Below are positions 39,638-61,133 of a stretch of DNA of 64,000 nucleotides, piece after piece. Position numbers and translations under genes: made by a program. The notes below the pieces were generated by a model. The model was not told the DNA's origin. It did no database searches and saw only the letters and a list, made by a program, of their open reading frames with translations. This stretch comes from an uncultured Verrucomicrobiae bacterium (GTDB lineage Bacteria; Verrucomicrobiota; Verrucomicrobiia; Chthoniobacterales; JAATET01), in contig CAVRCI010000002.1 of NCBI GenBank assembly GCA_963719495.1, positions 704,001 to 768,000 of the forward strand, given 5' to 3'. How positions within the stretch are numbered: position 1 is the first letter of the stretch; each line of letters opens with the position of its first letter.

Positions 39638-40796
39638 TAGGGTCTTTCGTTATGAGGACTCAAGAGGCAAGGATGTTGAAGGTGGCCCGAGGGTTGGAAT
39701 CGAGAAGTTCGCGGATTTGAGAGAGAGAGTGGTCGGGGAAAGTGTCGGCGAGTCGGGCGAGCAGGGCGCTGCGCAGAAGGGCGAGGTTGGCCAGGGCGTT
39801 GGGGTTGCGGGCGCGGTCCTCGCCCAGGAGGGCGTCGCGGCGCCAGTGGTTGCGGATCTCGACTCGGGCCCAGTGACCGCGAATGAGGTCGAGCCATTGG
39901 GTGCTGGTGTAATGTTCCGGCGGGGCGCTGGAGAGGTAGTCGCGGGTTTCGGTGGAGGTGGCGGCGGATTTTTTCAGGGTTTGCTCGCAGCGCTGGGTGC
40001 CTTCTTTCTGGTCGTAGACGGCGATGGCTTGGGGGGAGCCGTCTTCGTGCTGGGCGAGGGTCACTCCACCCGGCGCGGTGATGAGCGCACCCCGGCACTC
40101 GGGCGGCAACTCGCAGGCCCGCAGCCGCGCGCGGTCCCCGACCTCCAACTCTCGCAGCCAGAGCTTTTTAGGACGCTCGTTGGGGATGTAGAAATCCGCC
40201 CGGTGCCGACTGTATCCCGCGCTCATTCCCACCGCCTCCCAGTTGCTGGCCACAATAACAGGTGCCCGCGTGGCTCTCCGGGTCGGTGAAACTTTCCGCC
40301 AAAAGCGGCCGGTAGCCAAAGCGCTCCAGCCATTGTCCTGGCAAGGCTCTCAACGCCGCTCCCATCGCCGCGCTGGCCAGATTGGGCTCCTGGCCCTTGG
40401 CCGCGAGCACCAGAAAGCGGCGGTTCTGCACGATCAACTTGAGCCGTTCCACGCGATGCGGCGAGCTCGAGCCAATCCACAGATCCCGATCCTTGAGCGC
40501 GTAGCAGCTCGGTCCCCACACCAGTAGGGCCACCGCCCGCCCTTCGATCTCCACAATCTGCCGCCGGCTATCACCCACCGTTCGCCCCGCTCCCAAGTGA
40601 TGATGCTCCCTTAAACTCTCGTCAAAACTGGCCACTTCTTCCGCCGTGGCCACTCGGGCTTCCAACTTCTGCCGCTTCTCCGATGGTGTTGTGTCTTTCC
40701 TCCCACTTCATCCCATCGGCATTCGCCCTTTTTGTTTACCAAAAAAATACCTCCCCTCTACCTCAACTACTTACTTCCTCAGAAAAATAGACCCTG
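39638..40796 (-). mobile_element. Decayed, internally deleted ISAs1-family element with DUF4338-like domain
   Basis: Ends CAGGGTCTATTTTTCTGAG and TAGGGTCTTTCGTTATGAG; fragments NRRFLV..PNLAS..ESFTDP and IRGHW..EIRNHWRRD across frameshifts. Confidence 0.8.
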
Positions 40797-47726: not shown

Positions 47727-48435
47727 ATGGACCCGCATCGGAACCCCAAGCAGAGGGCGCGAGCGGGCATCGACGCCACGCTGATCCAGTCCGGTTGGAC
47801 CGTGCAGAGCCTGACGGAACTCAATCTACACACTTCGCTCGGCGTTGCCGTCCGCGAGATGCAGTCCCAACGCGGCCCCGCCGACTACGGTATCTTCGTT
47901 CAGGGCAAGGCGCTCGGCATCGTCGAGGCGAAAAAGGAAGGCGAGACGCTCTCCCTCGTCGCCGAGCAGTCGGCGCGCTACTCCCATGCCCGCAAATGGA
48001 TCCCGCAGACGTGGGCCGATCCACTGCCCTTCCCGTACGAGTCCACCGGCGTCGAGACCAATTTCCGCAGACTAATATCCGCGACCAGCGCGACCCGGAT
48101 CCCCGCTCGCGTCCCGTCTTTGCCTTCCACCGTCCCGAGTATTTCCTCGAGCTGGTCCAGCGACCCGGCACTCTCCGCGGGCGGCTTCGCCAGCTTCCCG
48201 AGCTGATCATCGCGCCACAGCGCGACTGCCAGATCGACGCCATTCATGGGCTGGAGGCATCCCTTGCCGATAATCGTCCCCGGGCGCTCATCCGGATGGC
48301 GACCGGCTCCGGCCAGACCCTCACCGCAGTCACGCAGGCCTACCGCCTCATCAAATTCGCGACGCCTTCCGCATCGGCCTCACCGCAACGCCGAACAAGG
48401 CCACACTCGGCTTCTTCAATCGCAACCTCGTTATG
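47727..48435 (+). pseudogene. hsdR: Type I restriction HsdR remnant (frameshifted and deleted)
   Basis: GPADY..IVEAKK nuclease motif; frameshift to RDCQIDAI..MATGSGQT; jump to RIGLTATP-like frame; ends at the repeat. Confidence 0.8.
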
Positions 48436-48454
48436 TCGGAGGGCTCAGTCGGGC

Positions 48455-48489
48455 GGTTCTGAACCAATGAACGGACTGACCCCTTTGAC
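48455..48489 (+). repeat. GACTGACCCC-family repeat, left arm (inverted partner at 56082-56116)
   Basis: GGTTCTGAACCAATGAACGGACTGACCCCTTTGAC. Confidence 0.9.
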
Positions 48490-48499
48490 GGGTCCTGAC

Positions 48500-48808
48500 C
48501 CGGGAGCCGTAACAAACCCGCCGACGGTTAGCGGAGATATTGTGAACGTGACAGGTGAGGACGGTCCCACAATCGCGTATGCAACTTGGAAGTTTTATAG
48601 CGTTGTCGAAATCGATTACAAATTCAACCTTTACATGCAATACAAGTTGAAAGGAGTCGAAGGCTCTTCTTGGAAAACTATCGGCAAGGCTCACTGGACA
48701 TGGTTAGGGGGTTGCTACTTATACCATAATCCGGAGCAGCAGCTGCCTTATGGAAATACGAGCAGCACAAGTGGAAATGCGAGTAGTGAATCACCAGTTG
48801 CTCCTTAA
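48500..48808 (+). pseudogene. Headless low-GC C-terminal gene fragment
   Basis: Open frame starts at the repeat with no convincing start; markedly more AT-rich than flanks. Confidence 0.5.
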
Positions 48809-48826
48809 CAGGGTTAGAAGAATTAT

Positions 48827-49378
48827 ATGAAATTAATACCTATCATCGCATTAGGAGTTGGGTGCTTTTCGACTTTGACAATGTGGGCAGTGCCTGTAAA
48901 CGAAGCAGAGGTAATTGAGTGGTTGACTGATCGCTGGTCCGAAGACTCCTCTCGTGCTGAAGAACTCGTCGAGTCGATTGACCTACGTCTTCAAACAGCG
49001 TCAGGGATAGAAGCTAAGGCTTTGCGCCAACAGCGGGATGGTTACTTAATGCCGCGTTTTGCTCTGCAGAAATTGGAGGCTGTCATGATCGGTCAGAAGA
49101 TGCGACGAGGTCAAATTCGTGATATGCCGTCGGAAAGCAGGGTGGCATCTCAATCGCTTGCCGCTTCTCGGCTTACGCAAAAGTTCCTGATACTTAAATT
49201 GCTTCAGTTCACGGAAGCTGGCGAGGGTGCTGCGTCTGCGGAAACGCGAGAAAGTGTGAGGAAAGTTGTAGAAAGAGCGGATGTTTACAACATATCGTTC
49301 AGCTCACTCATACAGGAGTATCTCAAAATGAACGGCGTGGCGAGCGACGTTGTTGATGAAACGCTTCGCAGAGAATAA
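48827..49378 (+). CDS. Low-GC secreted hypothetical protein
   Basis: 183 aa with signal-peptide-like N-terminus, 18 nt after the fragment's stop. Confidence 0.7.
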   Translation: MKLIPIIALGVGCFSTLTMWAVPVNEAEVIEWLTDRWSEDSSRAEELVESIDLRLQTASGIEAKALRQQRDGYLMPRFALQKLEAVMIGQKMRRGQIRDMPSESRVASQSLAASRLTQKFLILKLLQFTEAGEGAASAETRESVRKVVERADVYNISFSSLIQEYLKMNGVASDVVDETLRRE

Positions 49379-49495
49379 TTAGAAGCAGGCGGAAGAGTAG
49401 ACTGGCGGCTTTTTTTGGGGCGTCTCCGAACATTATGGTGTTTGCCCTCCGACAGTGCAATCAGGAATAAGGAATGGGGTCAGTCGAGAATGGCA

Positions 49496-51002
49496 CTAAG
49501 ATAAGGGGGATTTGGGAGGATTTTCGACCCCGGATTTTCGGTGAGGGAGCGGTCCCATTTGGCGGCGGGGCTTGGTCAAGAGGCGATAGTTTTTGGGGCG
49601 GCGTTTTCTGACTCTGGGGTTCGGATCGGTCTGGGCGCAGCGGAACGAGATCGCTGGCGATGGCAGAGAGCATGGCGTCGAGGATGGCGGAGATGGTGCG
49701 GGGTTTAGCGTTGGCCCCACTGGTGGCGTTGGCGAACTGACGGACGGTATCGAGAGTGCCCTTGAAGGAGACGCGATCCAGGTCGAGTTCGTGAATCAGG
49801 GCGGCTTTCTGCATGACGCTGCGGACGAGGTTGGAGGCGATGAAGTGCATGAGGAGTTCGCGCTCGATGAGGGCCGGGGATTTGCAGCGCAAGACGTCCA
49901 TGTTGAGAGCGATCTTGATCTCGCGAAAATGGAGTTCGACGCTCCAGCGGCGGAAGTAGAGGGAGGCGAGATCATCGGCGGGAATGGCCGTCTCGGAGAG
50001 CAGCAGGGTGGTCACCAAGGTGACGGTCTGGGTGCGGAAGCCGGGTTGGGCGATGGTGTAGCGCACGACGCGCACTGGAATATCCGCGGGCCAGAGCGCG
50101 AACTCCTCGGGCGTCATCCCGCGTGGTCGCTGCGCGGGGCGCTTCCAGACAATGTTCACATCGAAATTTGCCGACTTGGGAAGCTGAGCACCAATGGCCT
50201 TGCGGAACCGTTTTTCGGGCAAGCGCATCAACGAGTCCACGCCCAGGGAGAGCAGACCGGCAATAGCCCCGAAGGAACAAAATCCCCGGTCGGTGAGAAC
50301 GAGATCGCCACGATTGAAAATGCTCCAAAGGTTGCGAAAAAGCCGGGTCTCATGGGTGAGACGATCGCCCCAATCCGCCTTGAGAAGAGCTCCGGTGAGA
50401 AGGCAGAAAACGCCAACCAGATTGATTGCGGGAAAGCCACACCCCGGCTTCTGACTGCTGCTCTGCGGCCAACGATCTTGATTGGCTTCGGTGTCGGGCA
50501 TGGAGACACCCGTGCCGTCCACGAGCCGTACCTGGCGACCATGCCAGAGAGCGCCGCTGGGAATATTGGCTTCCATGCGCACGGCCAGATGGGTGTTGAT
50601 TCCTTCCAGTGTCGCCACCGGGAGCTTGGCTCGCGCCTGGCAATAAGCGCTGGCATTGCCACTCATGACCTCGGTCTCTGTAGTGCCAGACGGTTTGGAT
50701 TTTCTGCTCACCAAAGCCATGACCTTGCACACGGCTTCGCGACAGGAACCGTTCGGGGTTTGCACCTGATCCAGGAAGCTCCAGAAGACACGTTCGAGCG
50801 AGAAAATGCGCTTGCGGCTGTGAGCACAGCTGGGCGTTGAGCTAAGTAACTTCCGTGGAATGTAGGAGCCAAAGACGTTGACCAACACCGAGAGCGAACC
50901 GCTCTGCCTGAGCTTGGCAAGGGCCTGCGTCAGGGGTGAGACTGGCGGTCGTCCAAAAAGCCGCGAACTAAAATTTGGGAAAAACGGGTTGAAAGAACGC
51001 AT
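49496..51002 (-). pseudogene. IS4-family transposase with a frameshift near the C-terminus
   Basis: LVDGT, DRGF, YFRRWSVELHFREIK; tail RVRKRRPKNY in another frame after the G4 run at 49616-49619. Confidence 0.8.
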
Positions 51003-51044
51003 CCAATACAAGTATATATACTTAATCGAAGCCGCCAGTGAATT

Positions 51045-51398
51045 ATGCCGAAAACCGCTAAAAAATCCGACCTCACCGCCCGGGAAATCCGTCGACTCGA
51101 AGCACGCTACAGCACCCTGGCCTCGGAGCTGGGAAGCTTCCCCGAATTGAGTCAGGGAAGCGTGATGCCCCAACCTCCCCGGGCTTGGCGGTGGACCCGC
51201 AAAGTTGCCGGAAAAACCGTCACCGTTGGGCTCAGTCCCCTCAAAGCCCAGAGGATGAAACTAGCCATCGCCAACCATCGAAAGCTGGAAAAGAACATTA
51301 CCGAGATGCGCGAGATAACCCAGAAACTCATCTTGAGAACCCCAGATCCCTCCCCGATTCCCAAACGCGAGCCGCCTCCTAAATCCTCCTTAAGTTAG
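51045..51398 (+). CDS. Small basic passenger protein (DUF6788-like, tentative)
   Basis: QGSV..WRWTRKVAGKTVT..AIANHR; lies inside the IS ends. Confidence 0.6.
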   Translation: MPKTAKKSDLTAREIRRLEARYSTLASELGSFPELSQGSVMPQPPRAWRWTRKVAGKTVTVGLSPLKAQRMKLAIANHRKLEKNITEMREITQKLILRTPDPSPIPKREPPPKSSLS

Positions 51399-51417
51399 TG
51401 CCATTCGGGTCAGTCCG

Positions 51418-51683
51418 GAATGGCACTGTTTTAAGCCGATTTTCGGTGAAGAGCGCAAGGCGGTGAGGACGGCTTGGCAGGCCGTCCCGCGCGAGATCAT
51501 TGGCAACCGGGGTCTTTTCGATCAACGCTGGCGGTGTTGGTGGGGTGAGCGCGAAGTTGTAGCGGCGCGTCTGTGACCGCCGCGAACCATCTCGCTGAGT
51601 TTGCGCACCCGAGTCTGACGGCACCGGCGGTCACAGACCGCCGCTACAGCCCTGCCGACGATCCGCTTAAAACAGTGCCATTC
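51418..51683. mobile_element. 266-bp MITE with IS4-type ends
   Basis: Perfect 19-bp IR GAATGGCACTGTTTTAAGC; no transposase. Confidence 0.88.
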
Positions 51684-51694
51684 CGGACTGACCC

Positions 51695-53249
51695 GAATGG
51701 CACTGCTTTAAGCCAGTTTTCGGGGAGAAAGATGGAGGGAGATCCGCTGATTTGGTAGATTAAAGTGTGAGCAGCAACCAACCATTTCTCAGCGGATTCC
51801 CAACTCAAATATGTGGCAGAATGCGGCGGCGTCTGCAAGCGGTCATCGCGGAGCGACGGAGCGCATTGGCAGAGTCATCCATAGCGACCTACGCGCTGCA
51901 GTTTTCCCGCATCCTGCCGGCCGATTTTTTGGAGTCACTCTCGCTCACGCAACGGGTTCGGCAGTATTGCAATGTGGTCGTCTTCTGGGTGTGGCTGGCT
52001 CAGATTTTAGAGGCCAATGCGTCGCTCTCCAAAGCGGTGAGTCTGGTCCAATGCTGGTGCGGCGAGGCGGGTCTGCCAGTTCCCAGTGGGGATACCGGAG
52101 CCTTCAGTCGGGGTCGGGGACGACTCGGAGAGGCGTTTCTGGCCGGGGCGAGCCAACGCGTGCGCACTCATCTGGGAGCCCGGATCAGGCCCGAGGATAC
52201 TTACAAAGGACACGTGGTCAAATCCATCGACGGCAGCTCGTTGACTCTGGATGACACAGCGTCCAATCAGGAGCAATATCCGCAACCCACGAGCCAGAAA
52301 GCGGGTTGCGGCTTCCCGGTCATGGGCATCATGGGCGTGCTCAACCACGCCCATGGCGGATGGGAGGATTTCGTTGAAGGGCTGCAGAGCGCGCACGATG
52401 CACCGATCTTTCACAAGCTCATGCACTGCTTCGAACCCGGGGATTTACTTTGCGGTGATCGCGCTTTCTGCACCTACGAGTTGATGTCCACTCTGGACCA
52501 AAGGCAGGTCCATACGCTCATGCGTTTGCACCAATCCCGGCACCGCGTCCTGAACTGGAGCCGTGGCAAAAAGCTCGGCAAGCACCAACGCCTGGTTACT
52601 TGGAAGAAGCCCGCTAAACGCCCCGTGGGCAGCACCTTGAATGATTTGGAATGGGCGGCACTACCCGAAGAACTCCAAATCCGTCTCATTCGCTTTGAAT
52701 ACAAGGATCGCGCCGGGAGCAAACGCCGCATGGTCCTGGCCACGACCATGACTGACTCCCTTCGATACGACTGGCGCGAACTGGCCGCCATCTACGCCCA
52801 GCGCTGGGACATCGAACTACGTCTGAGGGACGTGAAAACCACCCTCGCCATGGATCACCTGCGCGTCAAAACGCCCGCGACCGCCCGCAAGACTCTCACG
52901 ATGAGTTTGATCGCCTACAACCTTCTCAAGGCCACCAGCCAGCAAGCCGCGCACAGCACCGGGCAGGACCTCCGACTCATGAGTTTCAAAGCCACTCTGG
53001 ACACCATCGTCGCCAACACCGCTCGCTACCTCCGCCGTCAAAAACACGCCCGCCTCATCAAGGAAATCTGGTCCGACACCATCGAAATGATCGCCGCAAA
53101 AATCATCGATCTCCGCCCCGGCAGGCACGAACCTCGTGCCCAGAAGAAGCGACCTAAAAACTTCAGTTATCTCACCGCTCCTCGCGCTCTCTACCAAGAA
53201 ATCCCTCACCGCGGCAAATCCCGATCCTTCGCTTAATGCAGTGCCATTC
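51695..53249 (+). mobile_element. IS4-family element B
   Basis: IRs GAATGGCACTGCTTTAAGC / GCTTAATGCAGTGCCATTC; perfect 11-bp TSD CGGACTGACCC at 51684-51694 and 53250-53260. Confidence 0.93.
51767..53236 (+). CDS. IS4-family transposase
   Basis: SIDGS, DRAF, YAQRWDIELRLRDVK (YREK-like). Confidence 0.9.
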   Translation: MSSNQPFLSGFPTQICGRMRRRLQAVIAERRSALAESSIATYALQFSRILPADFLESLSLTQRVRQYCNVVVFWVWLAQILEANASLSKAVSLVQCWCGEAGLPVPSGDTGAFSRGRGRLGEAFLAGASQRVRTHLGARIRPEDTYKGHVVKSIDGSSLTLDDTASNQEQYPQPTSQKAGCGFPVMGIMGVLNHAHGGWEDFVEGLQSAHDAPIFHKLMHCFEPGDLLCGDRAFCTYELMSTLDQRQVHTLMRLHQSRHRVLNWSRGKKLGKHQRLVTWKKPAKRPVGSTLNDLEWAALPEELQIRLIRFEYKDRAGSKRRMVLATTMTDSLRYDWRELAAIYAQRWDIELRLRDVKTTLAMDHLRVKTPATARKTLTMSLIAYNLLKATSQQAAHSTGQDLRLMSFKATLDTIVANTARYLRRQKHARLIKEIWSDTIEMIAAKIIDLRPGRHEPRAQKKRPKNFSYLTAPRALYQEIPHRGKSRSFA

Positions 53250-53362
53250 CGGACTGACCCCTTTGATGACCCCTTTGACTGACCCCTTTGATGAACCGAC
53301 CCCTTCGATGAACCAATGAACGGACTGACTCCTTCGATGACCCCTTCGACAATGAACGGACT
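53250..53362 (+). repeat. GACCCCTTYGA repeat array, left part
   Basis: About six GACCCCTTYGA-like units plus AATGAACGGACT. Confidence 0.9.
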
Positions 53363-53399
53363 TCTCTGAAAAAAGGGTCGAAGGGCTGTCAAGGGTCTA

Positions 53400-53680
53400 A
53401 TTTAGAGGGTTCTTGGACCGAGTGGGGCATGGGACGCAGAAGAAAGCGCCCAATGGGTGACCATCAGGGCAGGGAAAAGCGCGGGCTCTTACATTAAGGG
53501 AAGGAGCCTGTAAACTTGGGACGATAGCGATGCTGGAATCACACTTCTCTGCGGGGCGGGCACTTCTGGCCCCCATCCATTGTGGCGATCAGATCCCCAG
53601 CCCTCCATCCTGACCCAAGGTGCGCCGACTAAGTGCTAAGACTTAGCGACCAACCAGTCGTTCATTGGAGCGGCTGGGGA
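53400..53680 (-). ncRNA. Predicted bridge/seek RNA downstream of the IS110 recombinase (ends approximate)
   Basis: Segments matching left target, right target and one donor half, around hairpins. Confidence 0.65.
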
Positions 53681-54873
53681 AATTGTTTTCGAGAAGATCG
53701 ACTTTGGCGTCCCTGGCGTTTTTTCGGGGTTTTCATGTTGCCAGGTTTTTCCTTGGCCAAGCCTGGTTTGGACGAGATTTGTTCTTCCGCGTTGCGGCTC
53801 TGGCTTTGAAGTTTTTGGGACTCGGGAAAGTTCGTGTAGGAACGCCCCTGGGTCAAGAGGCTGCAGGTGATGCGGGCCATCCGGCGGGCGGTGGCTAGGA
53901 TGGCGGTGTTGGCTTTCTTGCCGTGAGCGCGTTTGTTTTTGTAGTAGTCGCCGAAGTAGGGCGAGCAGCCAACAGCCACCCAGGCGGCCTCGACGAAGGC
54001 CCAACGCAGCCATTTGTTGCATTGGGGCAGCAGGCGTCCGTGGTAGGTCTTGCCGCCGCTGCTGCTCGTCGCCGGGCAGAGTCCCGCGTAGCCGCAGAGC
54101 TTCTGCGCGGAGGCAAAGCGAGAGATGTCGTCGATCTCGGCGACGACAACCGCGGCCAGGATGGGTCCCATCCCGGGGAGACTGCAGACGTGGGTGAGCT
54201 CGGGGCTTTGGCTCATGAGATCTTTGAGCGCTGCCTCGTCCTGCCGGATGCGAGCGACCAACTCGTTGTGGAGGGCGAGTTGCTGGGTCAGGAGCATGCC
54301 TGCTGGTTCGGCCAACTCGAGCTTCTCCAAGAACCCCAGCCCCTTCTTGCCGAAGAGATCGCTACAGACAGGAAGTTTGAGTTCGTGCTGGCCGCCGAGT
54401 AACCGGTGGATGCGGTTGCGCAGCATCGTGCGTTGGCGCACGAAGAAACAGCGCTGGCGCAGCACGTTCTTGATGTCGCGGGTCTCGCGACTGGGGATGT
54501 GGACGCTCGAAATCAAATTGGCCCGCAACAGATTGGCCAACGCTCGGGCGTCGATCTTATCGGTCTTGATTTGGGCCTCGGCGATGATCCGCGTCTTAAA
54601 CGGGTTGGCCAACACGATGTTCTCGGCGGGCATCACCTGCTCGAGAATCTCGTAGAGCCAGTGCCAGTTCATGCTCGCTTCGAAGACGATCCGGCACCCC
54701 GGCCACCGCTCGACGAGCCGCCCAAAATCTCCGCTGATCGCGTGCTCGATGCGCCCTTGGCCGAGCACCTCGCCGTGGCCATCAACCACGCAATAGACGC
54801 TGTATCGCTTGTGATAATCGATGCCAATGAAGCTCGATTCCGTCGGTAGGCTTTTTGGTTGGGTTTTCATCAC
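53662..54873 (-). CDS. IS110-family DEDD recombinase
   Basis: IGIDYHK, FEAS, KTDKIDA, LPGMG, YAGLCP..SSGG. Confidence 0.95.
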   Translation of the reverse strand: MMKTQPKSLPTESSFIGIDYHKRYSVYCVVDGHGEVLGQGRIEHAISGDFGRLVERWPGCRIVFEASMNWHWLYEILEQVMPAENIVLANPFKTRIIAEAQIKTDKIDARALANLLRANLISSVHIPSRETRDIKNVLRQRCFFVRQRTMLRNRIHRLLGGQHELKLPVCSDLFGKKGLGFLEKLELAEPAGMLLTQQLALHNELVARIRQDEAALKDLMSQSPELTHVCSLPGMGPILAAVVVAEIDDISRFASAQKLCGYAGLCPATSSSGGKTYHGRLLPQCNKWLRWAFVEAAWVAVGCSPYFGDYYKNKRAHGKKANTAILATARRMARITCSLLTQGRSYTNFPESQKLQSQSRNAEEQISSKPGLAKEKPGNMKTPKKRQGRQSRSSRKQFPQPLQ

Positions 54874-54954
54874 CCCAACCTACACCATTCATTTCATCAG
54901 GCTCTCCGGGCCCCACTTCCCAGCAACGCTCTATTCATCAGCCTTTCATGCCGC

Positions 54955-55002
54955 CTGACCCCTTCGAGACCCCTTCGAGACCCCTTCGACGGGCCCTTCG
55001 AC
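54955..55002 (+). repeat. GACCCCTTCGA repeat array, right part
   Basis: (GACCCCTTCGA)x3 plus GGCCCTTCGAC. Confidence 0.9.
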
Positions 55003-55178
55003 AGGAAATGCTCTGCCACGCCTCGCTTCTCACCACGCAGGTTCACACCCGCGTCGTCCCCTCCGATCTCCAGCGCGTCCACAAGTTCACCGCCCCCAGC
55101 GAACGCCGTGGCGTAATCGACGTCCCCACCTTCGAACTCCACGCCTGGCGTGATCGCAAGAACCGTCACCGCTCCTGA
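55002..55178 (+). pseudogene. Tyrosine recombinase C-terminal fragment
   Basis: QEMLCHASLLTTQVHTRV resembles box II LGH..TTQ.YT, with G>C and Y>H. Confidence 0.65.
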
Positions 55179-55215
55179 TCCGGTCTCGCTCCAACTCCTT
55201 CCCAGCCGTAATCTC

Positions 55216-55698
55216 ATGCCCGTGCGCACGCTCCCGCTCTACCTCGACACCTCCGTCATCGGCGGCTACTTCGACGACGAGTTCGAGGAGGCTACCCGCG
55301 AACTCTGGCGGCAGAAAAAAGCCGGGCGCTTCCGGTTTACGACCTCGGCGGTGACCCGGCAGGAAATCGAGGAAGCTCCGGCCGACGTGCGCGAGTTGAT
55401 GGAAGAGACGTTCCCCGACGCCGATCTCCTTCCGCTCACCGCCGAGGCCATCGAGCTGGCCCGCGCCTACCTCGACGCCGCGGTCGTCCCGGAAACCTAC
55501 GCCGACGACGCCCGGCATGTCGCCATCGCGGTCGTTCACGAACTCCATCTGCTCGTTAGCTGGAACTTCCGTCACATGGTCAACGTCCGCCGATCGGATG
55601 CGTTCAACGCCGTGAACCTCTTGCAGGGTTACCCCCCAATCCGTATCGTTAGTCCGTTGGAACTCATCTATGACGACGAAGAAGAACAAACGCTTTGA
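55216..55698 (+). CDS. PIN-domain (VapC-like) protein
   Basis: YLDTSV, DARHVAIA, LVSWNFRH. Confidence 0.88.
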   Translation: MPVRTLPLYLDTSVIGGYFDDEFEEATRELWRQKKAGRFRFTTSAVTRQEIEEAPADVRELMEETFPDADLLPLTAEAIELARAYLDAAVVPETYADDARHVAIAVVHELHLLVSWNFRHMVNVRRSDAFNAVNLLQGYPPIRIVSPLELIYDDEEEQTL

Positions 55699-55840
55699 TG
55701 CTGTCGCCGAATCCCGCAAATGGCGGATCAAAACCGGCGCGATTTTGGCGACCATGACCCCCGAAGAACAGATGGCGTTCCTCAACCGGCGCATCCCCAA
55801 GAACCAAGCCAGGAAACGCCTCGCTTCTGCTTCTTCCTAG
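55670..55840 (+). CDS. Small putative antitoxin, 56 aa
   Basis: MTTKKNKRFDAVAESRKWR.., overlaps the PIN gene end. Confidence 0.6.
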   Translation: MTTKKNKRFDAVAESRKWRIKTGAILATMTPEEQMAFLNRRIPKNQARKRLASASS

Positions 55841-56053
55841 CCGTTCCTCACTGTTATGAGCACGTTGGCCGCCCTTCGAGAACACTCGGGGCAAGCCGTC
55901 GATTGTTTTGCTCCCCCCTACGCATTAAACCTTGTCCCCATTGACATCACTTTCGAGAAGGTCGACGACAACGAGGAGCTTAGCGATAACAAGAAGCCCG
56001 TCGAATGGGATCAGGCGGGCGTGCCAACTAAGTGGGAATGGATGCCGGGCCGC

Positions 56054-56116
56054 GGCCAGTCGGAGGGGTCAGTCCGGGCCAGTCGGAGGGGTCAGTCCGT
56101 GCATTGGTTCAGAACC
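56054..56116 (-). repeat. GACTGACCCC-family repeat, right arm, with a 23-bp tandem duplication
   Basis: (GGCCAGTCGGAGGGGTCAGTCCG)x2 then TGCATTGGTTCAGAACC. Confidence 0.9.
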
Positions 56117-56294
56117 CCCCTCCTCACGCACGCTCGCTAACAGCAAGTGCCCCCCGAAATCCCAGCCGGTCCGCCGCGTTCGACCATGACATCACACAAC
56201 AGCGGCACCGTATAGCCGTGCCTGATGCGGCCCCTCCCTAAAGGGACCCTCCGCGGCACCGCTCGCCAGAGCGCTGGGTCGGGAAGGTCTCGCG

Positions 56295-57514
56295 CTAGTA
56301 TACTGTAACGCGCTATCTTGCGTATTGAGTCGCGCTCATCGGAGCGGTATGTGGGTGGATGGCAAATCGATATCGCATCACTTTAACCGAGTCCGAACGT
56401 GAGTATTTGAGCGCGCTGGGCCGGACTTCCAAAACCGACGCCAAGCGATGTGTGCATGCTCGAACGCTTTTACTTTGCGACGTTGGCGAGCACGCGCCAG
56501 GTAGAACAGTGTGGAGGGTGGCGGATGTCGCCAGTGCTCTGGGGATCGGCGTTCGCACCGTCGAACACATCAAGGAGCGCTTCGTGGAGGATGGGTTGGA
56601 GGCAGCGCTTGGACGCAAGCCGAGAACCGGTCCTCCGAGGATTACCTTCGATGGAGCCTTTGACGCGAGGGTGACCGCCTTGGCGTGCTCCGATCCTCCC
56701 GATGGACGCGCCCGGTGGACCGTCCGTCTTCTCGCCGACAAAGTCGTGGAACTCAAGATTGCCCCCAGCGTTTCGACGATGACCATTCAGCGGTCTCTAA
56801 AAAAAACGAATTACGCCCTCATCTGAGCAAATATTGGAAGATCCCTCCAGACGGCAGCGCCGCTTTCGTTGCTTGCATGGAGGACGTTCTCGAACTCTAT
56901 CACGCACCCTACGATGCGCTCTTCCCCCTCGTCTGTATGGATGAGTCGAGCAAGCAACTCGTTGGCGAAGTCCACGCGCCCATCGCCAGCGCTCCCGGCA
57001 GGGCGCGGATCGAAGACCACGAATACGTCCGCAACGGCGTGGCCGAAATTTTCCTCGAAGTCGAGCCGCTGGGCGGACGCAGACATCTGGAAATCACCGA
57101 ACGCCGCACCCGCATCCAATGGGCTCAGTTCATTCGCAGCATGCTCGACGAACGCTATCCCCACGCGACCAAGGTGCGCTTGGTCATGGACAACCTCAAT
57201 ACGCACAACATCGCTTCGCTCTACGAAGCCTTCCCTCCCCAGGAAGCTCGCCGACTGGCCCAACGCCTTGAGATCCACTACACCCCAAAACATGGCAGTT
57301 GGCTCAATGTCGCCGAGATCGAGTTCAGTGTCCTTCAGTCCCAATGCCTGAATCGTCGCATTCCTAACATTGAAACGCTGCGCTCGGAAGTCGCGGCTTG
57401 GGAGGCCGCCCGGAACGAAGCCGCCCGCACCACTTCGTGGCGCTTCACCACCGCCGACGCGCGGGTCAAATTGAGACGGTTATATCCGCAGCTTTAGTCG
57501 TTACAGGATACTAG
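56295..57514 (+). mobile_element. IS630-family element
   Basis: CTAGTATACTGTAACG / CGTTACAGGATACTAG ends including CTAG sites. Confidence 0.9.
56359..57497 (+). CDS. IS630 transposase, two ORFs joined by a frameshift at A8 (56799-56806)
   Basis: HTH orfA (RWTVRLLA); DDE orfB (CMDE, MDNLNTH, SWLNVAEIE). Confidence 0.88.
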
Positions 57515-57570
57515 CAGCCTGTCGGACTTAGAGGGACGACAAAAGGAGAGGAAGCTGTCAGCTTGGGGAA

Positions 57571-58105
57571 ATGGCAGTGCGATACGTCAACGTCGATCAT
57601 GAAACCCCGTTACTTTTGCCGCCGAACCTTCGGGACTGGGTTCCGGCGGGCCACATGGTTCATTTTGTGATGGACGCGGTGGGAGCGTTGGACCTTGGAG
57701 CCGCGAAGAAGAACGAACGAGGGACGGGGTCGGCGCAGTATCCGCCGTCGATGATGCTTGGGTTGCTGATTTACAGCTATGCCACGGGGACTTTCGGCAG
57801 TCGGCGCATAGAGACACTCACGCATGAGAACGTGGCCGTTCGCTACCTGTGTGCCGAACACCATCCCGACCACGACTCGATTTGCAAGTTTCGGCGCGAG
57901 AACGCGGAGTTGCTGAGCAGCAGCTTTCACCAAGTGCTCGAGCTGGCAGCCGGGTCCGGAGTCCTGAAGGTGGGAGAGCTGAGCGTCTCGCTCGACGGCA
58001 CCAAACTTCTGGCCAAAGCCGAAGAGGCCGACAGCACCCCACCGGCCGACGGGTTGGAGATCCCGCAGGAAATCAAGCTCCGAGATGACCGATTGGCCAA
58101 GCTCC
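57571..58105 (+). pseudogene. IS1182 transposase N-terminal part
   Basis: LLLPPNLRDW, YPPSMMLGLLIYSY, PDHDSICKFR, LDGTK. Confidence 0.85.
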
Positions 58106-60011
58106 CAGGGCATTTGGCTTGAAGCGCGAGGAAGCTGATAGGTAGGGGAAAAGAGAAATGGCTAGACAAAAGCGCGTCGAAAAGCTGAACTACGGTGGTG
58201 AAAAAGCAGGAGACCAGGAAAGGCGAGGGCATTGAAAGCAAGGCAACGCGATTGGAAGTGAAGGTAGCGCATTCGGCGGGGGACTGGCGCCGAGCGAAAG
58301 AGGCCCTTGGGCGAGAGCATGGGTTGGGAGCTGGGAGCGAGGCGGGAGACCGGCTCTGTCAGTTGGTAATGGAGGAAGGGAAGCTTGCCGGGGTAATGGT
58401 GTGGTGTGCGGCGGCGTGGCATTTGAAGGATCGGGACGAAGCGGTGGGATGGGATGCGGTGACGCGCTCGGAGCGGCTCAAGCTGGTGGTGCAGCTGCGA
58501 CGCTTTCTGGTTTTGGAAGAGGCACGACGGCCGAACCTGGCCAGCCAATGTCTTGGGGCCGGGATGCGGGAACTGGTGGAGCAATGGGAAAAGGCCCACG
58601 GATACCGACCACTTCTGGCCGAAAGCTTCAGCGATCCAGAAAGCCATGCGGGAACGGTTTACAAAGCGACGAACTGGACGCAGGCGGGAACGACGAAGGG
58701 GTTTTCGCAAGACCACACCGACTACTACATCCCCAACGGGAGGCCCAAGAAGCTGTGGCTCAAAGAGCTCGCGCCCAAGGCCTGCGAGTTGATGAGCGCG
58801 CGCGAGTTGCCCGAAGCCAGCAAGGGGGCCTTGGTCGGACGCGGGGGAGCCCGCAGTCCGCTCAAGAACGCCGGACTCAAAAGCCTGCGCGACGCCTTGA
58901 GGGAGGTGCCCGATCCGCGTCACCCCAAAAGCCGCCGCCACCCCCTATCGGCGATGTTGACCCTGATCTCGCTGGGGTTGCTCATGGGAGCGCGCGACGT
59001 GCTCGATATCTGGAGGAAAGTGGCCTGCCTTTCCCAGAGCCAAAGAGAGGTGATCGGCCTGCGGGTGCGCGACAAGCAAAGTAAGCGGCTCAAGATGCCC
59101 GGCTACGATGCGCTCAACGACCTGCTGGCCGCCGTGGAACCCCACGCCTACGCCCATGCGCTGACGGCCTGGTTGCAAGCCAACGCGGGAGTGCTGCCCC
59201 GCAGCCTGGCCCTGGATGGCAAAAGCGTGGGCGATGGACGCTGCGGCATGATCGTGACCCTTTGCCGTCATGAAGACGGGCGTCCGGTGGCCATGATCCC
59301 GGCCAGCGGAAAAAAAGAAGACTGCGAAGTCTCCGAAGCCCGCGCCCTGCTCTCCAATCCCGGGGTGGAACTGGTCAACGCGCTGGTCACGGCCGACCCG
59401 CTTCACAACAAAGAGGCCACCGCGCGAGTCATCCTGGAAAAGGGAGGCGACTACCTCATCGGCACAAAAGCAAATACCTCCAAACGATTGGAGGCAGCCA
59501 CCCGCGCCCTGGAGGGCTCCCCTTTTTTGACCTGAGCTGCGAAGGCGATCACGGGCGCATCGACTCCCGCAAAGCCGCCGTCCAACCCATCTCCCCAGTC
59601 TCCGCCGGGCTGCCCGGTGCCCGCTCCGCCATCACCGTGCAGCGCGACTGGCAGGAAAAGAAAGACCCCCACCAAACGCCCAAGAGCCATACCCGTATCT
59701 TCCTTTCCAGCCTGAAACCGGAAGAAAAATCCCGTTCCACCCGCGCCGTTCGCGAGCACTGGAGCATCGAGAACCGCAATCACCACAAACGCGACGCCTC
59801 CGCCTGGCAAGAAGATCGGCACCGACATCGCAGACCAAAAGCTGCCCTCAACCTCGCCCTCACCCGCAACGTCCTGCTCGCCCTCATTCCCTTTGAGCAC
59901 GGGCAACCCCTCGCTCACTTCTTCGAACTCTACCACCGACACCCAGCAAAAGCTCTCAACCTTATCCTTCACGCTCGCCCCGCCCTATGACCCTTCCAGC
60001 CAAACGCCCTG
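58106..60011 (+). mobile_element. ISAs1-family IS, copy 2 (complete, 1906 bp)
   Basis: IRs CAGGGCATTTGGCTTGAAG / CTTCCAGCCAAACGCCCTG; 10-bp TSD GCCAAGCTCC at 58096-58105 and 60012-60021. Confidence 0.95.
58195..59990 (+). CDS. DUF4338/DruA-like-ISAs1 transposase fusion, -1 frameshift at CCCCTTTTTT (59519-59528)
   Basis: ORF1 58195-59535; -1 frame continues DHGRIDSR..VREHWSIENRNHHKRD..ED. Confidence 0.88.
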
Positions 60012-60779
60012 GCCAAGCTCCAAGAAGCCAAGACCGCCTTGGAAGCCCGGGCCAAAGTCCGCTTCGAGCAGGAAAGCGCGGCCCACGCCGAAAAGCTCGC
60101 CGCCCGCGCTCAAAAGCATCAAAGCACCGGGCGCATGGCCCGGGGCAAGGAGCCCGCGCTGCCCATCGAAGGCCCTGGACCCAAGGACCAGTATAATTTT
60201 ACCGACCCCGAGAGCCGAATCATGAAGGACAAAGGCAGCTTCGCGCAGTGCTACAATGCGCAGGCCGCCGTGGAGGTCGAAACCATGCTCATCGTCGGCG
60301 CACACCTCACCGACGCACCCAACGACAAGCAACAACTCCAACCCGGGCTCGAGTCAGTGAGTCCGGCCGTGGGCAGCGTGGCCCGCGTGCTCGTTGACAG
60401 CGGCTACTACAGCCAGGAAGCGGTCGCAGCCGCGGAAAGCCGGGACGGGAACCCGAAAGTTTACGCCGCACAAAAACGTCAGCCGCACGGGCGCAGCGTC
60501 GCCGATCTGGAGCAACGAGAAGACCCTCCCGCGCCGCCGCCCGACGCGACGTCGGCCGAAATCATGGCCCACCGACTGGCCACCGCATCGGGCCGCAACC
60601 TTTACGCCCTGCGTAAACAGACCGTCGAACCAGTCTTTAGCATCATCAAAGAGGCCATGGGATTCCGGCGATTGCTATTGCGTGGCCAAGAGAAAGCCGC
60701 ACTGGAATGGTCGCTTGTGACCACCGCCTACAACCTCAGACGCCTCTTCGGACTCGGAATGAAGGTCGCAAGAGCGTAA
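60012..60779 (+). pseudogene. IS1182 transposase C-terminal part
   Basis: NFTDPESRIM, YNAQ, VDSGY, RKQTVEPVF. Confidence 0.85.
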
Positions 60780-61133
60780 AGAGTCCGCCATCACGCCACC
60801 ATCCGTGCTGGCAGAGAGTCCAAAACGCTCTTCACCGGGTTCCCTCGCTCCAATCCCATCTTTTTCGTCATCGCCGCCGGCCAATCCAACCTCGTTTCAA
60901 GAAACTTCCACGCCAACGCTCTGGCTCCAAGTCCGACAGGCTGCTAGGCCGCAATACATCGAAGGGTCAGATCAAAACGCCACTGTTTTGCGGGTTTTCG
61001 GCAGGAATGTGCAAGATTCCATTCGCTTTGAACTCCGGCCCTTTCGAGGAATACCCTCCGTGCATGCTGCTCTGGATGCTCTGACTCATGATCTCGAACC
61101 TTGCTCAACAGAGTAAAAAACTGCCAACGGTGT

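Follow-up and report, generated by a model that had tools for sequence, protein, structure and literature searches.

TIRtron ends at broken genes in an uncultured Verrucomicrobiae bacterium: junctions consistent with a nick five bases outside the repeat

TIRtrons, or TIRYTs (PMC3733652; TnpA-REP subclass 2.1, 10.1101/279083), are described as Y1 genes lying between terminal inverted repeats (TIRs) that start with GGGGWSAS, and encoding proteins with a DnaA-C-like helix-turn-helix (HTH) tail. Their TIRs are dispersed as singles, dimers and clusters, and several paralogues with different TIRs can share one genome; TIRYTs are the second-largest TnpA-REP subclass (10.1101/279083). We analysed a window of 64,000 nucleotides from an uncultured Verrucomicrobiae bacterium (the whole stretch G000:C2:704001-768000, G000 being the 4.54-Mb genome in 16 contigs that holds it; homologues carry labels that suggest Verrucomicrobiota), in which about 7.7 kb of broken genes and insertion sequence (IS) DNA lie among copies of a repeat that shares all these TIRtron features. 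The accessible TIRtron text gives no cleavage site, unit structure of the clusters, link to gene truncation, same-length replacement or targeting by IS elements, all of which the present genomes add.

The Escherichia coli TnpA-REP system, acting on repetitive extragenic palindromes (REPs) and bacterial interspersed mosaic elements (BIMEs), has the same catalytic fold and likewise spreads its repeats in trans (PMC3333891, PMC8266576; structure 4er8). REPs of E. coli are GTAG-tagged hairpins cut at C|T, whereas the TIR studied here contains no GTAG tag and folds no better than its shuffles (z-scores -1.1 to +0.5), giving no REP-like hairpin. The cut that we propose for the TIR would, in contrast to that of TnpA-REP, be set by distance, with only one end of each unit fixed. 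One-ended rolling-circle transposition of the IS91/ISCR type, described partly in PMC3333891, also combines an HUH enzyme with one fixed and one variable end and can carry neighbouring DNA. The TIRtron differs in having two equivalent inverted ends in place of an ori and a ter. The IS91 protein is also of the Y2 type, in contrast to the Y1 RAYT-type protein found here (RAYT, REP-associated tyrosine transposase). Neither TIRtrons and their clusters nor the insertion of IS elements into host repeats is new, and the locus itself is ordinary debris; what we add is a putative cut site, deduced from sequence, in a known element family. A literature search that covered few subscription papers returned no TIRYT substrate, cut site or mechanism, no account of a TIRYT enzyme binding or cleaving its TIR, and no fixed-start arrays or overwriting, and the accessible part of PMC5581495 treats the RAYT groups without those features.

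An earlier note on the window had described a 35-bp inverted repeat, which is present at 48455-48489 and 56082-56116 with 32 of 35 positions identical, together with additional copies, which we find at 48436-48450, 49476, 53250-53362 and 54955-55001; the last two are not separate copies, being a single TIR array split by an IS110 element. The core of the repeat is the 25-mer GGGGTCAGTCCGT(T/G)CATTGGTTCAG. At up to four mismatches it has 64 copies in the genome, against none for each of three shuffled 25-mers, and this type-A repeat and its relatives, eight TIR variants in all, reach 156 strong copies, dispersed as singles, dimers and clusters. The 25-mer occurs in three of five congeners and in none of 55 more distant genomes. 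The palindrome GGTTCWGAACC, also pointed out in the note, does end both arms; it is no feature of the family, however, for it marks only 2 of the 49 copies ending CATTGGTTCAG, both of them in the window. With three occurrences genome-wide, it was rejected as a recognition site. Stacked TIRs of several variants form one array within a block shared by G000:C13:507.6-510.0 kb and C14:27.4-29.7 kb.

As the note had stated, the window holds no HUH gene: none of the 12 matches to the Y1 family (PF01797) in the genome lies on its contig. Six of these matches are proteins of 311-356 aa, each between its own GGGGTC(A/G)G inverted-repeat pair. The search for a RAYT gene flanked by the window's own motif, which the note had proposed on the strength of a likeness to the GGGGWSAS repeats of RAYT-like HUH nucleases, led to a gene at G000:C11:169.3-170.4 kb with the exact 25-mer on either side (169265, +; 170342, -). 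Its product scores above the PF01797 cut-off, and H60, H62 and Y121 are invariant in 123 aligned sequences. The structural model (predicted local distance difference test, pLDDT, 87.8) superimposes on the E. coli RAYT 4er8 (Z 16.4, root-mean-square deviation (rmsd) 2.2, 158 residues aligned), and its residues 248-332 on DnaA domain IV (3pvp; Z 10.9, rmsd 2.3, 83 aligned), with a further DnaA domain IV match at Z 10.8. PF08299 is annotated on 12% of the members of its Atlas cluster. Pfam scans of the tail gave no HTH match, a Foldseek search with the transposase matched the Y1 domain only, and a single-sequence model of the tail alone was poor (pLDDT 69). Against the REPtron model NF047646 the protein reaches 54.7 bits, below the cut-off of 80. 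GGGGWSAS-type TIR pairs number 55 among 113 related loci, and of 251 genomes in this order 85 contain close relatives (G172 being one row of that tally). By the published descriptions of gene and repeat features, which set the class, the repeats are almost certainly the TIRs of a TIRtron.

Two short RAYT/IS200-like genes at G000:C13:356865 and C8:183857 have different flanking repeats of their own, unrelated to the TIRs. Y1/RAYT-like domains also lie in frame within three housekeeping proteins (G000:C10:2659-2886, C14:101784-102077 and C13:379694-379993; ORFs, open reading frames, of 1096, 926 and 1163 aa), which we take from their sequences to resemble leucyl-tRNA synthetase, RecG and alanyl-tRNA synthetase, respectively.

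The orientation of the repeats bears directly on how the locus is read. At the C11 transposase gene the GGGG side is outermost at both repeats, whereas in the window the GGGG sides of both 35-bp arms point into the 7.7 kb, which consequently lies outside both repeats. The arms thus face outward relative to a TIRtron, and the idea that they bound the 7.7 kb as an element was rejected.

Evidence for a defined cut comes from the TIR clusters, which are built of tandem units, 11 nt to 2 kb long, in which a few outer flank bases are followed by a TIR start that breaks off at varying lengths. Among perfect tandem pairs, those compatible with a start at -5, five bases outside GGGG, number 38 of 56 in this genome, where a uniform null predicts 13.4. 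With congener loci counted apart and one G172 locus left out, the corresponding figures are 19 of 27 for congener loci (null 7.6) and 12 of 21 for non-congener loci (null 6.0; P about 0.0009), pairs being present at 19 of the 113 loci. Six control anchors gave 0-6 tandem pairs each. Long direct repeats of 72-1987 nt likewise start at -5 or within a few bases of it. A second count took the 167 outermost TIR starts, for 60 of which an intact copy of the outer DNA exists: homology ends at -5 in 13, at -4 in 8 and at -6 in 4, so that 25 of the 60 fall within -6 to -4, while 22 end elsewhere or are uncalled. The binomial test was based on 25/50, setting aside eight junctions at IS4 target duplications or whole-copy matches and two uncalled rows. 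In the window itself the break in the xer gene lies exactly at -5, and the five flank bases are absent from the intact gene. These junctions back the suggestion of the note that gene breaks mark a cut or recombination site acted on in trans.

A nick at -5 is, on the sequence of these junctions, quite probable. Our favoured reading, which we regard as probable, is that the copies are dispersed TIRtron ends on which a transposase of the C11 type acts in trans, nicking the GGGG strand at -5 and rejoining the end to a different 3' end, with IS4 and IS110 elements inserted inside. The scheme starts from what the sequence shows: the repeat is the TIR of an intact gene whose Y1-HUH product ends in a DnaA-domain-IV-like tail. 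The tail would bind the TIR as double-stranded DNA, as its fold and the lack of a hairpin suggest, and the HUH domain would cut at a measured distance, since the five flank bases vary widely among loci. HUH enzymes leave a 5'-phosphotyrosine and a 3'-OH able to prime synthesis or attack the adduct (PMC8266576), and by this chemistry the cut would leave the 5-nt flank and TIR on the tyrosine and a free 3'-OH. Extension of the 3'-OH before rejoining would give tandem units that all start at one point but differ in where they end, much as amplification of BIMEs in E. coli by nick, extension and rejoining was proposed earlier (PMC3333891, Fig. 7B legend). A 3'-OH that was trimmed, or that came from other DNA, would instead leave the TIR fused to a gene that has been cut short, the cases here being hsdR, xer and the gene for a module of a large secreted protein; trimming and uptake of flanking gene fragments have also been suggested for BIMEs (PMC3333891). 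In addition, TIR pieces replace look-alike host sequence and older TIR variants without change of length, a pattern that is observed and whose route is the weakest step of the scheme: it would need the released TIR strand to anneal to a look-alike site, or a template switch. Lastly, IS4 elements, the related MITE (a miniature inverted-repeat transposable element) and IS110 use the TIR as target.

Several points weigh against this reading. The -5 position is only the mode, with 13 of 56 pairs in this genome starting beyond it and 5 inside (8 and 0 in congener loci, 5 and 4 in non-congener loci), and the null for start positions is a simple uniform model. Homology ends at -9 to -11 in 13 of the 60 junctions, and many of the 60 are themselves ends of tandem units, which makes the two counts not independent. 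The hsdR and module breaks fit -5, but rest on distant homologues. Two transposase copies that are 96% identical and lie at different sites carry different outer 5-mers, and where coding sequence has been overwritten, host bases continue up to -1, which plain transfer of a -5 end would not give. Both ends of the 7.7-kb interval share a rare AACC tail and the rare 5-mer TCGGA (at 48436, 56060 and 56083; it precedes 1 of the 64 full copies), a coincidence that we cannot fully explain. A search of sequencing runs listed no RNA set, and three DNA contig sets mainly cover the IS parts, with no usable junction.

Evidence for same-length replacement comes from solo TIRs. Eight solo sites were aligned with congeners, and no flanking gene was lost at any of them, which does not favour an integron-like capture system; one site has a duplicated gene end, which confounds the alignment at C1:391007. 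Five solo sites are shared, and at three of these the TIR type found at the one position varies from species to species. One TIR variant has 11 copies in G001, 3 in G003 and none in G000, the 11 including both ends of that genome's own transposase gene and four shared sites. A gene that we take, from a motif, to be SixA-like contains a TIR in G001, where G000 and five more distant genomes retain the ancestral codons, the length being the same; the form in G003 and G004 has partly reverted. Three species carry the TIR in frame within a presumed NAD-synthetase-like gene. At 25 of 30 single-orientation loci GGGG lies on whichever strand is richer in C over 40 kb (P 0.0002), a bias that could stem from replication (lagging strand) or from gene orientation, which are inseparable here. 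Whole-genome GC skew is very strong, and many 40-kb bins reach 0.15-0.30.

In its reverse reading the TIR has the open frame M-N-G-L-T-P and, in the letters ATGA, a stop codon that overlaps a start codon (window 48459-48483; G000:C2:393306, C13:474172 and C11:170342). It supplies the transposase's own stop codon, an in-frame ATG for a headless low-GC ORF in the window, and apparent starts and stops at gene junctions; this content may explain the survival of copies at such junctions.

If the proposed reading is true, it accounts for the multiplication of the repeats, for their presence at broken genes and IS piles, and for their entry into coding sequence without frameshift, and it describes a small HUH enzyme with a separate, swappable DNA-recognition domain that joins its own end to arbitrary 3' ends. 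The junctions predict the cut position to the base, the strand cut and the products, and a published cleavage and strand-transfer assay exists (PMC8266576). More tentatively, and with the odds somewhat against it, TIRYTs may be a distinct kind of HUH recombinase, in which a double-stranded repeat that forms no hairpin is recognized by a DnaA-like domain, which sets the nick 5 nt beyond the repeat irrespective of sequence, and in which the released strand joins any 3' end or anneals to look-alikes at the replication fork. Such an enzyme would write its own binding site in frame into host genes, update old sites to the current variant, duplicate kilobases and allow foreign fragments to be trapped between outward-facing ends, acting as a natural site-directed genome rewriter.

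The TIRs are also targets for IS elements. IS or MITE DNA, absent from the cassette view of the earlier note, makes up 5332 of the 7662 bp of the interval (70%) and comprises two IS4 elements, one MITE and one IS110. The IS4 elements score 194 and 157 bits against NF033592 (cut-off 115), and the marks of that family, a DDE transposase, inverted repeats at the termini and a target duplication, here of 11 bp, are all in place. The first occurs twice more in the genome, each time in a TIR, and every other full copy of either IS4 element likewise sits in a TIR; the MITE also uses other sites. IS110 (227 bits against NF033542, cut-off 140), which shows the DEDD recombinase, short insertion core and long non-coding end of its family, has five full copies in the genome, all five within TIR or TIR-derived sequence, and the ends in congener loci are placed likewise. 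IS4/MITE and IS110 elements, then, take the TIR as target. IS621-type IS110 elements insert into REPs at a CT core (PMC11208160), and the IS110 of the window similarly uses a CT core in a host repeat; its target differs in being a TIRtron TIR, of which more than one variant is used. Its 300-nt non-coding end (window 53363-53661) matches the TIR target over 7 nt at one place and the element's own ends over short stretches, and is, from these matches, a candidate bridge RNA programmed against TIRtron TIRs.

At G000:C13:681096, L025:2362 and L020:6025, tandem units start at a TIR, run into IS110 end sequence and adjoin intact TIRs, so that either duplication continued after IS110 insertion or IS110 was later excised cleanly. 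Kilobase tandem duplications starting at TIRs lie at G000:C14:86.8-91.0 kb, C15:2.3-5.1 kb, L011:1036-2455 and L025:3483-5343, and include an IS110 present in duplicate and additional, shortened copies of the transposase gene.

The features of the locus are collected in Table 1. Four genes are broken, as the note had recognized: hsdR, the low-GC ORF, the xer tail and the ORF at 55856. The hsdR reading frame stops at 48435, where three congeners (G001, G002 and G005) continue; the fragment is frameshifted and has an internal deletion of about 390-460 bp at 48360, away from any repeat. A HMMER search matched the low-GC ORF only to the C-terminal ~95 aa of proteins of 160-413 aa (five of eight matches), a word-index search having found no homologue, and it is the C-terminal domain of a longer protein, probably a secreted one. 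What is left of xer are the 58 codons that close a 331-aa XerC/D-like gene, of which G005 has an intact copy. The match of the 55856 ORF covers residues 807-849 of a protein of 1307 aa, which runs on for 458 aa. For the 183-aa ORF no homologue was found in 16 family genomes or Pfam, and the best Atlas match stood at 0.77. We infer that the short ORF overlapping the PIN-domain gene might encode an antitoxin.

Table 1. Features of the TIR-rich locus (positions in the window)
Feature	Position	Strand	Remarks
hsdR 5' fragment	47727..48435	+	HSDR_N and ResIII matches; ends at -5 of the next repeat
Outer flank TCGGA and degenerate 10-nt TIR start	48436..48450	+	Repeat family D8
Full 25-nt type-A TIR and 5-nt flank, first G 48483	48459..48488	-	0 mismatches to the TIR of the C11 transposase
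Headless low-GC ORF, in frame with ATG inside TIR	48467..48808	+	GC 0.46-0.51
Truncated outer TIR unit	48490..48502	-	
Complete 183-aa ORF, signal-peptide-like start	48827..49378	+	
5-nt flank and 12-nt TIR start, first G 49476, interrupted by IS4	49471..49487	+	
IS4-family element 1: transposase and DUF6788 ORF	49488..51406	-	NF033592 over cut-off
Inverted 11-nt TIR pieces flanking the MITE	51407-51417, 51684-51694		
266-bp MITE, same IS4 ends	51418..51683	.	
IS4-family element 2, perfect 11-bp target duplication of TIR sequence	51695..53249	+	NF033592
Tandem TIR array, inner part: 5-nt flank and variably cut TIR starts	53250..53362	-	
IS110 element including both CT cores, at CT of TIR	53361..54956	-	Transposase 53662-54873; NF033542 over cut-off
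Outer part of the split TIR array, last 5-nt flank 54997-55001	54955..55001	-	
3' tail of XerC/D-like recombinase gene, joined exactly at -5	55002..55178	+	97% match to intact G005 gene
PIN-domain gene and short overlapping ORF, part of island	55216..55840	+	PIN E=5e-4, below cut-off; same order in G005
5' fragment, orphan module of large secreted protein, ends at -5 of the next TIR	55856..56059	+	
Two-unit TIR array, first G 56065 and 56088; duplicated unit with 11 nt flank	56060..56112	+	
TIR inner leader and truncated terminal sequence of primase-xer-xer island	56113..56275	+	

The earlier note had read the locus as an integron-like capture system, in which an HUH enzyme opens outward-facing TIR pairs and foreign pieces are joined between them and shuffled as cassettes. 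In its favour, both non-IS segments lie between outward-facing TIRs and are broken on the TIR side, the G003 genome has a 150-bp IS4 fragment between outward-facing TIRs, G001 has a truncated transposase gene of one TIR type in front of a TIR of another type, and the rare 5-mer and tail shared by the interval ends would fit. The contents of the interval speak otherwise, however. It is mostly IS DNA that targets the repeat, and the pieces are gene fragments, with no whole genes among them. The stretch 55002-55741 is 97% identical to a primase-xer-xer island that is intact in G005, and the order xer, PIN gene, cargo and terminal repeat is kept as in that island up to 56275, so that the right-hand 'cassette' keeps its native order. 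The low-GC genes have no counterpart in any of the 16 family genomes, and because no congener holds them, exchange of content could not be shown. We guess that the low-GC segment is cargo of the same island class. The likeness to integrons extends only to the look of gene pieces between repeats beside a fragment of a tyrosine recombinase: the recombinase piece is the 58-codon tail of an XerC/D-like island gene, the pieces are broken genes and IS elements, and the intact G005 xer gene scores 109 against TIGR02249, where 265 is needed for an integron integrase, and matches XerC/D models best. Erosion of resident DNA yields the same picture, and we consider capture and shuffling unlikely; in the 7.7 kb we probably see an island in decay, which has been eroded starting at several TIR ends and into which IS elements have inserted, and no working cassette array.

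A second explanation would treat the repeats as passive relics, their arrays produced by replication slippage and the gene breaks by IS4 and IS110 activity or by homologous recombination between repeats. TIRs are indeed hot spots for IS elements, rearrangement linked to IS elements is suggested by the inverted pieces of target on either side of the MITE, and the deletion in hsdR is unrelated to any repeat; pfkB and ftsK, which lie about 86-94 kb apart in G001 and G003, are separated by about 15 kb here, a difference that marks the locus as a synteny break and is in keeping with this explanation too. Slippage, however, fixes no end of a unit, whereas only 5 of 56 tandem pairs start inside -5, against 27.4 expected. 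The cuts made by IS4 and IS110 fall within the TIR and not 5 nt beyond it, homologous recombination cannot join a TIR flank to an unrelated xer gene without homology, and the -5 register holds in other taxa, all of which makes passive origin very improbable.

Least probable of all is conventional transposition, with inward TIR pairs moving as units by 5-bp staggered target duplication and arrays arising by repeated insertion: inward TIR dimers of about 90 bp, the 96%-identical gene copies at different sites and a 5-nt register typical of staggered cuts would suit it, but of the 55 TIR pairs that surround related genes only 1 has direct 5-bp flanks, while in 8 the two 5-mers are identical in inverted register, and a TIRtron target duplication of 5 bp was rejected on this count. 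Solo TIRs, moreover, take the place of host sequence without a change in length, and the enzyme has a Y1 fold, not DDE.

A second remnant consisting of an xer tail and a PIN gene, 65% identical to that of the window, lies at G000:C13:504608-505305, on the outer side of a TIR-like sequence and beside the same IS4. Elsewhere in the window, an ISAs1-like element at 58105-60012, whose N-terminus matches DruA/Mom profiles, is inserted in another IS at 57511-60947, and a degraded relative of it is found at 39660-40665 (39.7-40.7 kb).

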